Notes under the pieces: generated by a model | What the model saw: the letters and a program-made list of their open reading frames with translations, nothing else | What the model was told of the DNA's origin: nothing | Databases searched by the model: none | Translations under genes and position numbers: made by a program | Shown here: piece by piece, positions 36,149 to 40,847 of the stretch | How positions within the stretch are numbered: position 1 is the stretch's first letter | Layout of the letters: each line of letters opens with the position of its first letter | Assembly: GCA_934202735.1 (NCBI GenBank) | Contig: CAKPYH010000001.1 | Coordinates: 75,614-139,613 of the forward strand | Reading direction: 5' to 3' | DNA: 64,000 nt | Origin: an uncultured Alphaproteobacteria bacterium | GTDB lineage: Bacteria; Pseudomonadota; Alphaproteobacteria; CAAHEQ01; UBA3637

Positions 36149-36601
36149 ATGAAAAAGAAGTTAAAATTTATTGGATTGGTGTTCTTGGGATGCATGCTAT
36201 CCACAAATGTGTTATCATGGACAACCACAATTAATTCGGTAAAAAATTATGAAAAATTTGTTTATGATGAAGATACAGAAATGTATACAGGGGATATTGA
36301 ACGGGTCTATATGGAGAAAAAAGCCCCCGATGGAAAGATTTATGTTTTATATGATTTGACAGTAGAACAAAAAGAAAATGATGATGGAACCCTGGAATCG
36401 TCTGATTATTCTCTTAAAACAGGAAACGATATTTATCCTCGCCAAATGGATGATTATTTTTTACTGGATTATCATTTCAGGCCTTTAACCCATTTAGGGG
36501 TTAAACTGGGCACACATAAAGGTCAAATTATTTTTGAGATTCCGGTCAATCAAAAAGATTTGCCCAAGACTTTACTTTATAAAAAGCAACCTGTAAAATA
36601 A
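36149..36601 (+). CDS. hypothetical secreted/lipoprotein-like protein (150 aa)
   Basis: MKKKLKFIGLVFLGCMLSTNVLSW... is a signal peptide with an imperfect lipobox. First gene of a 4-gene co-directional cluster. Confidence 0.45.
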   Translation: MKKKLKFIGLVFLGCMLSTNVLSWTTTINSVKNYEKFVYDEDTEMYTGDIERVYMEKKAPDGKIYVLYDLTVEQKENDDGTLESSDYSLKTGNDIYPRQMDDYFLLDYHFRPLTHLGVKLGTHKGQIIFEIPVNQKDLPKTLLYKKQPVK

Positions 36602-36617
36602 CTGATAGAAAAATAAA

Positions 36618-38237
36618 ATGAAATATGGTATTTTTTGCATAAGTTTATTTTTATCAACGCTGGCTCATGCTGATTATATACTTGATCAGGCAAAGATGGA
36701 TGCCGATATCCAAAAAGAATTATCGCAAAAGCAATATACTGTGGAGGATCCTTTGGTGTTGGTCAATCCTTATGGTATTTCTCCATTGAGTGCTCTTATT
36801 TCCTTTTCTACAAAAGAATCAACGCAGGCTTGTATCACAGTAAAAGGAAAAGATAAATATACCACTTTTTCAAAATGTTTTAATGATAGAACAAAAAATC
36901 ACTTGATCCCCGTCTATGGTCTTTATTTTGGGAAAAACGATATCGTATTAACGATAAAAGATAAAGATAAAAATCAAAGTAAAGAATATCCGTTGGAAAT
37001 TGAAACGGAAAAAATGCCTATCAACATGAAAGTGAATATTCAAAAAATAAACGCGGAAAAAATAAAACCGGGACTGACTTTTACAACACCCGGGGTTATC
37101 GTAAATGAGGGAAGCTACGCTTATGCATTTGATGCAAACGGTGATATTCGTTGGATTTTAACCGATCCGATCATGGGAAAAATGTCTCCGTTGCACGTGT
37201 TAAAAGATGGTACTTTAATGATGGGTTCTGAAGAACATGACCCAAAATATACTGTGGCGTATAAATCTCTTTATGAATTGGATTTGATGGGGAAAATTCA
37301 TCATAAAATCCAAGCCGAAGATGACATTCAACATGATATTGTCAAACTGCCTAATGGTAATTATTTGGCTTTGGTTAATGCAACGGGGAAACCCACGATT
37401 GCCGATTGTGTGGTAGAATTAACCCCCGATAATAAAGTCGTTGATCGCTTTGATATAGATAAAATTTTAGGGGTTGAAGATGAAAGAATTACGCCGCTTG
37501 TTGACCACTATCTTTATCATGATAACTATAAACGTGAAAAAATGGATGCCATGCATTTGAATTCTTTAAACTATGATCCTGAAGATGATAGCATTATTAT
37601 GACAGGAAGATTTTTTAACTTTTTATTGAAGATTGATCGTAAAACAAAACAAGTTAAATGGATTTTGGCAAATCCGATAAATACTTGGATAAAGCCACAC
37701 TTGCGGGATAAATTATTAAAACCGACAGATAAAAATTTTGATTATATCTATGGGGCTCACGCGGCAAAACCGCAAGGTCATAATCATTATACTGTTTTAG
37801 ACAACGGTCTTTATCGTGATATATATGACCAAGGTTCCGCACAACCCATTGAGACCTATAATCCTTCACGCAGTTGGTCGCGTGGCGTAGAGTTTGTTGT
37901 TGATGAAAAAAATATGACCGTTTCAGTCGCATGGCAATATAAACGCGGGCCAGAAATTTATACTCACTATGTTGGGGATGTAGATAAATATGAAGCAGGC
38001 CATTATTTAATGAATTTCGGTGCTGTCTTTGATGATAAAGATGAAACACCGGCCAGCGTTGAAACGGCATTAAATCCACAGAAACAACCGGCTCCTTCTT
38101 ATGCTAAAATCATTGAAGTCAAGGATGGAGAAGTTGTTTTTGAAGCACAAACAGCCGGCCTGTTAAATAATACGGTTTATCGTGTAGAACGTTTTGAACC
38201 ATACGTATTAGATACTGAATACAAATTGGGCAAATAA
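36618..38237 (+). CDS. putative periplasmic beta-propeller protein, arylsulfate sulfotransferase (ASST)-like, paralogue 1 (539 aa)
   Basis: Signal peptide MKYGIFCISLFLSTLAHA|DY. Motifs ...DIQHDIVKLPNGNYLAL..., ...AMHLNSLNYDPEDDSIIMTGRFFNFLLKIDRKTKQVKWILANP... and ...GAHAAKPQGHNHYTVLDNG... resemble the His-containing signature blocks of bacterial ASST (PF05935) as I recall them. Not verified by search. Confidence 0.4.
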   Translation: MKYGIFCISLFLSTLAHADYILDQAKMDADIQKELSQKQYTVEDPLVLVNPYGISPLSALISFSTKESTQACITVKGKDKYTTFSKCFNDRTKNHLIPVYGLYFGKNDIVLTIKDKDKNQSKEYPLEIETEKMPINMKVNIQKINAEKIKPGLTFTTPGVIVNEGSYAYAFDANGDIRWILTDPIMGKMSPLHVLKDGTLMMGSEEHDPKYTVAYKSLYELDLMGKIHHKIQAEDDIQHDIVKLPNGNYLALVNATGKPTIADCVVELTPDNKVVDRFDIDKILGVEDERITPLVDHYLYHDNYKREKMDAMHLNSLNYDPEDDSIIMTGRFFNFLLKIDRKTKQVKWILANPINTWIKPHLRDKLLKPTDKNFDYIYGAHAAKPQGHNHYTVLDNGLYRDIYDQGSAQPIETYNPSRSWSRGVEFVVDEKNMTVSVAWQYKRGPEIYTHYVGDVDKYEAGHYLMNFGAVFDDKDETPASVETALNPQKQPAPSYAKIIEVKDGEVVFEAQTAGLLNNTVYRVERFEPYVLDTEYKLGK

Positions 38238-39404: not shown

Positions 39405-39413
39405 AATATAAAA

Positions 39414-40847
39414 ATGAAAATTGTACAGTTAATTTTTGTTATATTGTTTTTCCTTGTTTTAACAGGGGCCGGATTGTTTCGGCAGTATCAATATACTTTA
39501 AAATTTGATGATGTTTCTAATGGTATTCTGACTGTCAACGGAGATGAAGTTATTCCTAAATTCTCAAAAGATGTCAAAGATTATCATTCAACATCCTTAT
39601 CGGCTCTTACACCAAATTTAATGCAGTTTGGAAATACAACTAAAAAATTCAATGTTAAAGAAATTAATCCACAAAGTCCTGTCATTCCATTCAAAATTGG
39701 AAATGAAACATATAATCTGCATGTTTGGTCTGCTAACCTTGCTGAATTTGACACAAAAGGTGCAAAAAACGTAGAAGATGGTCATTATTTTATCACTTCA
39801 GAATGGTGGGATCAAAACCACACTTTTCCGGCTTATATTGTCAATAAATATGGCCAAATTTTATATTATAAATATGCGATTGATAAAGAGAATAATTTAA
39901 AAAGCGCAAGTGATTTTAAATATACAATTTTATCTGATGGAACGATCCTATATTCTTTAATAGGAAATGAGACTTTATTCGTGATGGATAAGAATTTTCA
40001 ACCTTTTTTCAGAACGAAGTTATTAAAAAATTCAACTCATTGGGAATTCGGATTAGATGGCCATCATCATGTTATTTTAGGAAAAGATCATTTTATCATT
40101 TTCGCAACAATGCTTAAAGAAGTGTTGGACGCAAAAAAAAACAAGCCGATATTTTTAGCCGTCCCGATTATACAAGAGATAAAAGATAATAAAATCATAT
40201 TTGAGTGGAATGGGTTGGATTATCCGGAATTATATGAAAATTATTCTCAATGTAAAACATGGCCTAATGGAACTTTTGATTATGCTCATCTCAATGCCAT
40301 TATAATTGACACCAGTGATAATAATTTGATTTTGTCTTTTCGCGGAATAAATACATTATTGAAAATAGATCGAAAAGATGGTCATATCATTTGGCAATTA
40401 TCGGGGTATAATGACAATTTTAATTTAACAAAAGAACAAAAATTCTATGGACAACATTTTCCATATATTGATAAGGATGGATATTTAACTGTTTTTGATA
40501 ATTTCAGTAATATGATGGGAGAAAAAAATTTTATTCAAGAAAATTCTTCAATAAAAAAATTCAAGCTGGATCCCGTCAATAAAAAAATAGTTGAATATAA
40601 AAAAATTCCTTTAATTTTCTGGTCTTACGCAATGGGATCCGCATTGCCGGTCAAGCAGGGAAGATATCTTGTGTCCGCAGGTAGTTCTAATATTTCCAAT
40701 CTATGTGCACTGGAAATTTCTGAAAATGGCAATGAAGTTTGGAGATTGACATTTAAAGATCCAAACCAAAAACGTGTTTGCTATTATGTTTATAAACGTC
40801 CGTTCGCATATCGCGATCATTTTAGAAGGGAGATTCAAAGTGAATAA
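39414..40847 (+). CDS. putative ASST-like beta-propeller protein, paralogue 2 (477 aa, N-terminal signal-anchor)
   Basis: MKIVQLIFVILFFLVLTGAGLF.... ...YAHLNAIIIDTSDNNLILSFRGINTLLKIDRKDGHIIWQLSG... parallels the H-x-N-x-(L/I)-x-(Y/I)-D...LLKIDRK...W block of the 539-aa paralogue. The last 12 codons (YRDHFRREIQSE*) are supplied by repeat copy 2. Confidence 0.4.
   Translation: MKIVQLIFVILFFLVLTGAGLFRQYQYTLKFDDVSNGILTVNGDEVIPKFSKDVKDYHSTSLSALTPNLMQFGNTTKKFNVKEINPQSPVIPFKIGNETYNLHVWSANLAEFDTKGAKNVEDGHYFITSEWWDQNHTFPAYIVNKYGQILYYKYAIDKENNLKSASDFKYTILSDGTILYSLIGNETLFVMDKNFQPFFRTKLLKNSTHWEFGLDGHHHVILGKDHFIIFATMLKEVLDAKKNKPIFLAVPIIQEIKDNKIIFEWNGLDYPELYENYSQCKTWPNGTFDYAHLNAIIIDTSDNNLILSFRGINTLLKIDRKDGHIIWQLSGYNDNFNLTKEQKFYGQHFPYIDKDGYLTVFDNFSNMMGEKNFIQENSSIKKFKLDPVNKKIVEYKKIPLIFWSYAMGSALPVKQGRYLVSAGSSNISNLCALEISENGNEVWRLTFKDPNQKRVCYYVYKRPFAYRDHFRREIQSE

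Follow-up and report, generated by a model that had tools for sequence, protein, structure and literature searches.

Arylsulfate sulfotransferases (ASSTs) are the enzymes with which gut bacteria move sulfate among drugs, dietary polyphenols, neurotransmitter-like amines and microbial phenols, independently of 3'-phosphoadenosine 5'-phosphosulfate (PAPS). Here we describe a cassette of four genes for exported proteins, at positions 36149-40847 of a 64,000-nt stretch of DNA from an uncultured alphaproteobacterium of the human gut (contig CAKPYH010000001.1 of assembly GCA_934202735.1; by "the window" we mean the whole of this stretch), in which two enzymes that very probably belong to the ASST family are encoded together with a porin and a small exported protein. 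Among the described relatives, Cpz4 of the Streptomyces caprazamycin biosynthesis acts inside an antibiotic pathway and uses a dedicated donor made by that pathway. In Pseudomonas putida, the TonB-dependent receptor SftP is genetically linked with aryl-sulfate-ester enzymes (the ats/sft sulfate-ester genes). That system differs from the cassette, however, in that an energised TonB-dependent receptor works there with sulfatases for sulfur acquisition, and neither a passive OprB porin nor sulfotransferases take part. The AssT enzyme of Escherichia coli CFT073 (assT-dsbL-dsbI; structures 3ELQ, 3ETS and 3ETT) is periplasmic, consists of a beta-sandwich and a 6-bladed propeller, and is encoded in an accessory operon with dedicated envelope partners, DsbL and DsbI. 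According to a 2026 review, His436 is sulfurylated in the E. coli structure, while His252, His356, Asn358, Arg374 and Thr501 coordinate the sulfuryl group; a disulfide has been confirmed for the E. coli enzyme alone. For BvASST of Bacteroides (Phocaeicola) vulgatus a sulfo-histidine intermediate has been shown, and physiological phenolic sulfates such as acetaminophen sulfate serve as donors for many phenol acceptors, microbial and dietary ones included (PMC12809581). An OprB-family porin encoded with enzymes is known from the chlamydial aaxABC genes, where the porin AaxA accompanies the arginine decarboxylase AaxB and the antiporter AaxC (PMC8503770).

The four genes of the cassette lie on the forward strand and encode a small exported protein of 150 aa (36149-36601), an ASST of 539 aa (ASST539; 36618-38237), an OprB-family porin of 387 aa (38241-39404) and an ASST of 477 aa (ASST477; 39414-40847). 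The initial annotation of this DNA, made from the letters alone, had proposed a four-gene exported operon; the reading frames stand at the coordinates it gave, with its intergenic gaps of 16, 3 and 9 nt, and all four products carry N-terminal hydrophobic export signals. It had also found the two large products reminiscent of ASSTs. We now hold with high confidence that both are ASST-family enzymes with intact active sites, since profile hidden Markov model (HMM), solved-structure and fold evidence agree and the catalytic histidine set is complete. Of the two HMMs that the annotation had proposed for a check, PF05935 is matched above its cut-off by both products and PF14269 by ASST477, with scores far beyond chance, and neither of the two outcomes that it had set as contrary to its proposal, an assignment to PQQ or YVTN propellers or a loss of the histidine triad, has occurred.

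ASST539 matches PF05935 over model positions 2-374 of 374 (E = 1.8e-71, 241.6 bits against a cut-off of 24.2). Its residues 46-126 match PF17425, the N-terminal Ig-like domain of ASSTs (61.6 bits, E = 7.5e-17), and this domain aligns with residues 15-127 of 3ELQ. Against E. coli AssT (3ELQ/4P04) the E-value is about 1e-26, with three local stretches aligned. The architecture is that of an N-terminal Ig-like sandwich and a 6-bladed propeller, preceded by a signal peptide with apparent cleavage between ...TLAHA and DY. In an alignment of 86 family sequences the equivalents of His252, His356, Asn358 and Arg374 are H239, H313, N315 and R331. The equivalent of His436 is H381, in the segment FDYIYGAHAA, which aligns with FDWTWTQHTG. 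As the HMMER pairwise alignment misplaces His436 in ASST539, H381 was set by the family alignment and by the register FDxxYxxHxA...T(V/I)(L/F)DNG; the residue numbering was transferred through P0068, an enterobacterial homolog that has the same motifs and is not E. coli AssT itself, and through a direct alignment with 3ELQ. All these catalytic residues are invariant across the clade of ASST539 (12 members in the case of H381). Judged by its sequence, ASST539 is a periplasmic enzyme of the ASST family, and the equivalents of His252, His356, Asn358, Arg374 and His436 of E. coli AssT are all present in it.

The likeness to the E. coli system extends to the layout, for in both cases an accessory operon supplies dedicated envelope partners. 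However, identity outside the motifs is low, and the partners differ: ASST539 is accompanied by a porin, a small exported protein and a second ASST, while E. coli AssT is accompanied by DsbL and DsbI. The Cys418-Cys424 disulfide of the E. coli enzyme is absent from ASST539. Indeed, there is no conserved cysteine in the whole ASST539 clade, and two orthologs have no cysteine at all; hence the disulfide and the dependence on DsbL/DsbI do not apply here. The search for dsbL/dsbI-like genes that the initial annotation had proposed returned none, and with no conserved cysteines none is expected: genes of the DsbA, DsbB or thioredoxin-fold types were absent from the island that carries the cassette, from the flanks annotated in sister strains and from 20 further open reading frames (ORFs) of the window, the stretch of ribosomal-protein genes at about 10-23.6 kb being unscanned. 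The cassette thereby tells us that the Dsb partnership seen in E. coli is not a general feature of the ASST family. Tyr96, which had been listed among the catalytic residues, is not catalytic according to the 2026 review.

ASST477 matches PF05935 (68 bits, E = 1e-18, the same cut-off of 24.2) as well as PF14269 (57.4 bits, E = 2e-15, cut-off 27). Its closest solved relative by sequence is 9KF4/9KF6 (E = 9.4e-17), of which 9KF4 is named as Cpz4 in the description returned by the fold search. An AlphaFold2 (AF2) model of ASST477 reached a predicted TM-score (pTM) of 0.70, with the propeller core mostly above 80 in predicted local distance difference test (pLDDT). A Foldseek search with this model returned Cpz4 at 1e-16, then 3ELQ at 2e-12, with generic and BtuG-type propellers from 1e-8 onwards. 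The equivalents of His252, His356, Asn358 and Arg374 are H219, H292, N294 and R310 in the family alignment, and that of His436 is H348, in the motif YGQHF. Cpz4 is therefore the best match of ASST477 by both sequence and fold; it is similar in size, and the two share a PF14269-type architecture without a recognisable N-terminal domain of the AssT type. Yet ASST477 is only 21% identical to Cpz4 over the aligned part, appears to be anchored in the membrane, belongs to a Gram-negative gut bacterium and has no biosynthetic genes nearby. The anchor is suggested by a hydrophobic segment at residues 1-25 and a confident helix at residues 2-21 of the model; this helix of 20 residues resembles a membrane anchor more than a signal that is cleaved off. 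The model region 25-110 is of low confidence, and no sandwich domain can be confirmed there.

ASST477 and ASST539 are only about 21% identical to each other. They have one block in common, MHLNSLNYDPEDDSIIMTGRFFNFLLKIDRKTKQVKWIL in one and AHLNAIIIDTSDNNLILSFRGINTLLKIDRKDGHIIWQL in the other, with the pattern ...HLN(S/A)...D..D(D/N).(I/L)I.(S/T).R..N.LLKIDRK.....W.L. This signature block had been noticed in the initial annotation and is real, but the pattern given there had one position too many between the aspartates, the correct form being D..D(D/N). The histidine blocks of the annotation fared similarly: QHD/HHH (H239 and H219) and QHF (H348) do coincide with catalytic positions of AssT, whereas the "HN" block of the 539-aa protein is noncatalytic, the catalytic residue being H381 in YGAHAA. 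A propeller of the PQQ, YVTN or BamB type was considered as another identity and ruled out; the match to PQQ_2 (E = 0.12) was below the threshold.

The second line of evidence is the conservation of the cassette, for which we sampled 48 ASST loci overall and mapped all proteins of the window onto the 11 loci of the ASST539 clade. Homologs within this clade are 60-74% identical to ASST539, after which identity drops to about 33%. In species-representative genomes its hosts are seven metagenome-assembled genomes (MAGs) of uncultured Alphaproteobacteria and one Elusimicrobium MAG; the sources are human (Hadza), rumen and other gut metagenomes. In all, the unit of small protein, ASST and porin was met in at least 8 species of gut Alphaproteobacteria and in one Elusimicrobium. 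An ortholog of the small protein lies directly 5' of the ASST gene in all 11 loci, and the small protein is therefore an obligate upstream partner of the 540-aa ASST. Directly 3' of the ASST gene, 10 of the 11 loci carry the OprB porin, in the same orientation; the two genes either overlap or stand 3-12 nt apart. In 10 of 11 there is also an adjacent extra ASST paralog, placed downstream or, divergently, upstream. L009 and the Elusimicrobium loci have a paralog like ASST477, and the remaining ones a paralog of PF17425+PF05935 type. Locus L009 holds the ASST closest to ASST539 (74% identity) and has an identical order of the four genes. Since the pairing of ASST and porin is conserved across species, it is not a chance adjacency. 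When 37 more distant ASST genes (from Firmicutes, Gammaproteobacteria, Acidobacteria and other groups) were examined out to 8 kb, neither the small protein nor the porin turned up beside them, so that among the loci sampled the package is limited to uncultured gut Alphaproteobacteria and Elusimicrobia.

The enzyme family and its chemistry are already established. The conserved package of two ASSTs, porin and small protein is unmentioned in searchable papers, as are its limitation to these gut lineages and its variation among strains: we found none that links an ASST with a porin, nor any that contains both sulfotransferase and OprB. The remark in the initial annotation that the arrangement had not been described thus stands as far as the searchable literature goes. 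For the substrates of the cassette enzymes BvASST offers, by analogy, the most plausible model, but PMC12809581 makes no mention of a porin, an outer membrane or an operon, and the cassette enzymes form a separate clade (about 33% identity to the nearest outsiders).

One side observation belongs to locus L009, from the closest other species, where two overlapping ORFs (10816-11577 and 11463-12272) take the place of a single ASST477-type gene (10816-12272); the cause is either a frameshift, as in a pseudogene, or an error of assembly.

The 387-aa barrel had been described as a porin-like outer-membrane protein with a C-terminal FYF. It does end in KFYF, a C-terminal beta-signal, and its family is OprB (PF04966; 67.2 bits, E = 2.2e-18, cut-off 22.9), so we assign it on sequence grounds to the outer-membrane porins of this family. 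A signal peptide precedes it, with apparent cleavage between ...EYAIA and GP; the orthologs also have a signal peptide and a terminal F or L. A sequence search matched it to no solved structure. The nearest curated NCBIfam model is that of chlamydial AaxA (NF051888; E = 1.5e-51, 175.8 bits against an equivalog cut-off of 600 bits), by which score the porin is a relative and not an AaxA ortholog. The parallel with aaxABC is that an OprB-family porin is clustered with an enzyme that acts on the solute admitted; the partner enzymes and their chemistry, however, are unrelated to those of the ASST cassette. A porin of the cassette clade, P0165, also occurs in a MAG labelled "Lactobacillales bacterium". 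Its contig is probably mis-binned, as one would hardly expect an outer-membrane porin in a Gram-positive bacterium.

The small protein matches DUF4352 (PF11611) at 28.6 bits (cut-off 25.9, E = 1.8e-6), and only 3 of its 11 orthologs match that family at E<=1; it is a candidate for a distant DUF4352-like beta-sandwich. The orthologs were taken from the loci themselves, as a direct homolog search, whose word index is insensitive to so divergent a family, gave only 3 matches. A family-profile search of the sequences in the Protein Data Bank (PDB) returned no solved structure. The initial annotation called this protein a small lipoprotein, and a lipobox that fits the PROSITE-type pattern (VFLGC) is indeed present in the window, as is VLGSC in L007, but the feature is not conserved: nine of the 11 orthologs lack a lipobox. 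These nine have signals of the signal-peptidase-I type instead, with apparent cleavage just before a conserved (D/N)GW. At most, then, a lipoprotein form would be a feature of the window strain.

What could such a cassette do? On balance we favour, with moderate confidence, the reading that it equips the cell envelope with a self-contained module by which sulfuryl groups pass between phenolic compounds independently of PAPS. Co-transcription, enzymatic activity, the substrates and the service of the porin to the enzymes are what we infer in this model; family membership, the conservation of catalytic residues and of synteny, the export signals, the foreign composition and the variable presence among strains are observed. 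Transcription would start from a promoter upstream of 36149. The OprB-type porin in the outer membrane would admit small polar or anionic solutes to the periplasm; likely candidates are the aryl sulfates and phenols that abound in the gut. There, a soluble ASST539 and an ASST477 anchored in the inner membrane and similar to Cpz4 would act. The sulfuryl group of an aryl-sulfate donor would be taken over by a histidine, H381 in ASST539 and H348 in ASST477, and then be passed to a phenolic or alcohol acceptor in a ping-pong reaction, as in E. coli AssT and BvASST. The small protein might have a role in assembly, in localisation or in the presentation of substrate with the 540-aa enzyme.

Several observations weigh against this model. 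Thr501, one of the residues that coordinate the sulfuryl group in E. coli, is replaced by V452 in ASST539 and by M407 in ASST477. However, Thr occupies this column in just 25 of the 86 family members, and a Desulfosporosinus homolog has Ile there, hence Thr501 is not a requirement of the family. The nearest characterised ASSTs are less than 33% identical to the clade. Several second ASST paralogs of other species (L003p, L005p2, L007p, L011p and L013p) keep the three histidines and have Lys or Gly at the position of Arg374; some paralogs therefore need not be active sulfotransferases, and by their sequence such proteins may have an altered donor or acceptor chemistry or may have lost activity. 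Neither profile, Pfam nor AF2 gave a confident fold or function for the small protein, and the AF2 model, built on a 4-sequence alignment, was unusable (pLDDT 48). Finally, the porin is missing from locus L007, where the small protein and the ASSTs remain, and porins of the same subfamily also stand alone in related genomes: P0170 (51% identity, in an Elusimicrobia-like context) and, at 35-39% identity, porins of Alphaproteobacteria, among them P0178/P0222 (35-38%). Hence the cassette porin has its origin among the ordinary porins of these lineages, from which it was recruited.

It is because of the stand-alone relatives and of the porin-less L007 that the porin may be a general one which merely travels with the enzymes. 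In such a case the enzymes would be ASSTs as proposed and the porin a general-diffusion OprB-type hitch-hiker, a compatible channel for any recipient host without substrate-specific coupling. The Elusimicrobium cassette porin, which clusters with stand-alone Elusimicrobia porins in the tree, fits this as well. In our opinion a hitch-hiking porin is nevertheless rather unlikely, given that its position and orientation are kept in 10 of 11 loci from two phyla and that porins and ASSTs fall into congruent subgroups in their trees. Compared with their stand-alone relatives, the cassette porins are also more positive in net charge, and they have conserved basic positions of their own, K160 and K172. 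This charge difference is weak evidence, a suggestive hint from sequence, as these residues are unplaced in the pore without a model. A change of purpose rather than of chemistry is a further alternative: the cassette might serve to scavenge sulfur by an arylsulfatase-like net desulfation of host aryl sulfates, a reaction of the kind first reported for some family members, or to detoxify dietary phenols by sulfating them in the periplasm, ahead of their arrival at the inner membrane. We think this unlikely. Some family members are annotated as "arylsulfatase" (P0058, for example), ASSTs act on phenolic acceptors of great variety, microbial and dietary phenols among them, and the location is periplasmic. 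However, no sulfate transporter or sulfatase-maturation gene occurs in or beside the cassette, and since the chemistry would be identical and only its physiological purpose would differ, sequence does not discriminate here.

A reading that we regard as highly improbable is that the propellers are not enzymes at all, and bind ligands or interact with the host in the manner of those Bacteroides propeller lipoproteins that work with outer-membrane transporters. BtuG-type B12-binding propellers are indeed the next-best structural matches after the ASSTs, but they are 4-8 orders of magnitude weaker than Cpz4 and AssT, and the full catalytic set (three His, Asn and Arg), which both paralogs possess and the clade keeps without variation, would be unexpected in a pure binding protein. 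Genes for exported ankyrin and serpin proteins, which occur at the same site in various strains, would agree with a role at the host interface. A further reading, which we consider quite unlikely, is a PAPS-independent sulfo-relay formed by the two ASSTs. ASST539 and its small partner would harvest the sulfuryl group from host aryl sulfates that enter through the more basic porin of the cassette, and ASST477 would sulfate a non-phenolic acceptor, either in the envelope or secreted, much as Cpz4 sulfates a liponucleoside. If this were true, a gut symbiont would sulfate its own surface with host conjugates as the source of sulfate, and the place of the cassette in a strain-variable hotspot, beside genes for exported ankyrin and serpin proteins, would agree with such contact with the host.

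The cassette is a compact and testable system for finding out what gut ASSTs do and with which substrates. The selectivity of the porin could point to the natural substrates, and the two divergent paralogs could reveal a division of labour. Moreover, natural strains with and without the cassette allow association tests against host sulfated metabolites in cohorts for which metagenomes and metabolomes already exist.

In the window species the operon appears to be longer than the cassette. A fifth gene on the forward strand (40840-41256; called as a gene in sister strains, confirmed by reading the junction) encodes a 138-aa product with four membrane helices predicted by hydropathy and no Pfam match. 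It starts with GTG after a GGGAG site and overlaps the stop codon of ASST477 by 8 nt. The gaps of 16, 3 and 9 nt, this 8-nt overlap and the single strong terminator, which comes only after the last gene, lead us to infer that the four-gene cassette is part of a five-gene operon here. The fifth gene is species-specific, being absent from the cassettes of other species and retained in the cassette-free strain L062; it is outside the conserved core of the cassette. The terminator is a G+C-rich hairpin with a 10-bp stem at 41516-41539 (forward strand), between the operon and the convergent ptsN. Upstream of the first gene, the region 36003-36148 holds two candidate promoters on the forward strand, both read by eye: TTGACA-17 nt-ATAAAT at 36003-36031 and, downstream of it, TTGCTT-17 nt-TATAAA. 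A putative ribosome-binding site (AGGTGA), likewise read by eye, stands before the gene for the small protein. A consensus promoter scan did not place the elements of 36003-36148 among its top sites. The fifth ORF had been missed in the initial annotation, as had the non-conservation of the lipobox and the 548-bp direct repeat described below.

The block around the operon, from just past tRNA-Glu(CTC) to near 41400, has 29-40% GC in a background of about 48-50%. The cassette itself has 34% GC against 48-50% in the flanks and roughly 49% in the genome; a mismatch is also seen in L007, while in most other species cassette and flanks match (in L009, for example, 32.5% against 32-36%). Because the cassette matches the GC content of its flanks in most other species and not here, and because it is present in some strains and absent from others, we conclude that it is a horizontally acquired, strain-variable module in a recombination hotspot bounded by repeats. 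The donor was probably a low-GC gut alphaproteobacterium. The initial annotation spoke of a mobile island; low GC content, a tRNA gene nearby, flanking repeats and variation among strains all agree with this, but no integrase or other mobility gene goes with it: neither the island nor any of the strain alleles contained genes for integrases, recombinases or transfer functions. The only tyrosine recombinase found in the window is an Xer-type gene about 30 kb from the island (2673-3596, reverse strand; Phage_integrase and SAM-like N-terminal domains), which probably represents XerC/D of the chromosome rather than an integrase of the island.

The left anchor of the variable region is tRNA-Glu(CTC) at 32880-32954 (forward strand, found with ARAGORN). 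An att-like repeat of 51 nt lies at 35948-35998, and its right copy, 92% identical, lies at 41337-41387 at the boundary of the island, which is marked by a step in GC from about 31% up to about 52%. In the sister strains L054 and L055 the 3' end of the tRNA-Glu gene abuts this repeat, with ...GGGTCGCCA followed directly by CCACCTGCCCCCTTTTACAGGCATTGTTTT and then by the operon; a 92%-identical copy of the CCACCTGCCCCCTTTTACAGGCATTGTTTT sequence stands after the fifth gene. The window carries in addition a strain-specific insertion of 3.0 kb (32955-35965), absent from L054, which consists of a 53-nt spacer, a unit of 548 bp and an ankyrin gene. The 548-bp unit is a direct repeat with 2 mismatches (33008-33555 = 40808-41355) that brackets the ankyrin gene and the operon, and each copy comprises the 3'-terminal 40 nt of the ASST477 gene together with the whole gene for the 138-aa membrane protein. 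The ankyrin gene (33581-35860, reverse strand, with ankyrin Pfam matches) encodes an exported ankyrin-repeat protein of 759 aa, in which the signal peptide MKNLLLSTVLVSCLFYNTANA is followed by TE and the C-terminal part of about 230 aa matches no family. It is bordered by repeats of 17-20 nt (CAAATTGCCCACATGACTGC) at 33534, 35945 and 41334.

Strain alleles of this site were found by a look-up of the flanking PtsN protein, and their flanks are 99% identical. The cassette stands alone in L063 and is joined by the ankyrin gene, on either side according to the strain, in L059 (ankyrin gene at 9765-12044) and L060, the latter an independent instance of adjacency between ankyrin gene and cassette. 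In L065 and L066 it is accompanied by an ORF of 252 aa. Two alleles are free of the cassette: L061 and L062, the latter with exactly a single 548-bp unit between tRNA and ptsN. In L060 a gene for a 384-aa serpin lies between ptsN and the cassette (9726-10880). With serpin and ankyrin genes both at tRNA-Glu/ptsN, this site collects eukaryote-like exported proteins besides the ASST cassette. Contigs of 7.3-7.6 kb from other samples hold just the ankyrin gene and the four cassette genes and end near the positions of the repeats. An artefact of assembly was considered as the source of the 548-bp repeat and ruled out by the adjacency in L060, the single-repeat allele L062 and the contigs from other samples.

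Some smaller observations concern the same site and the rest of the window. The spacer (32957-33007), found in the window and in a cassette-free allele, is in its first 20 nt 80% identical to ASST477 codons at 40301-40320; an older deletion could have left it behind, or AT-rich DNA could match here by chance. The 252-aa ORF (at 9683-10441 in L066, for example) matches no family and is variable within the hotspot in L061, L065 and L066; where it occurs, the membrane protein is a variant of 136 aa and the second ASST a variant of 484 aa with a different C-terminal junction. Farther away, on the reverse strand, a comparison with L059 shows a PemK-type toxin gene with a small upstream partner of 72 aa at about 49746-50257. 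Adjoining it at 50254-51780 is a gene for a 508-aa protein; the Pfam scan of this ORF in the window gave nothing at E<=1e-5, and the copy in a sister strain has a match to MamY_C and a weak ATG17-like match. Also on the reverse strand, at 62047-63762, is a gene for a 571-aa protein in which a passenger without family match is followed by a C-terminal autotransporter beta-domain (PF03797, 1e-22).

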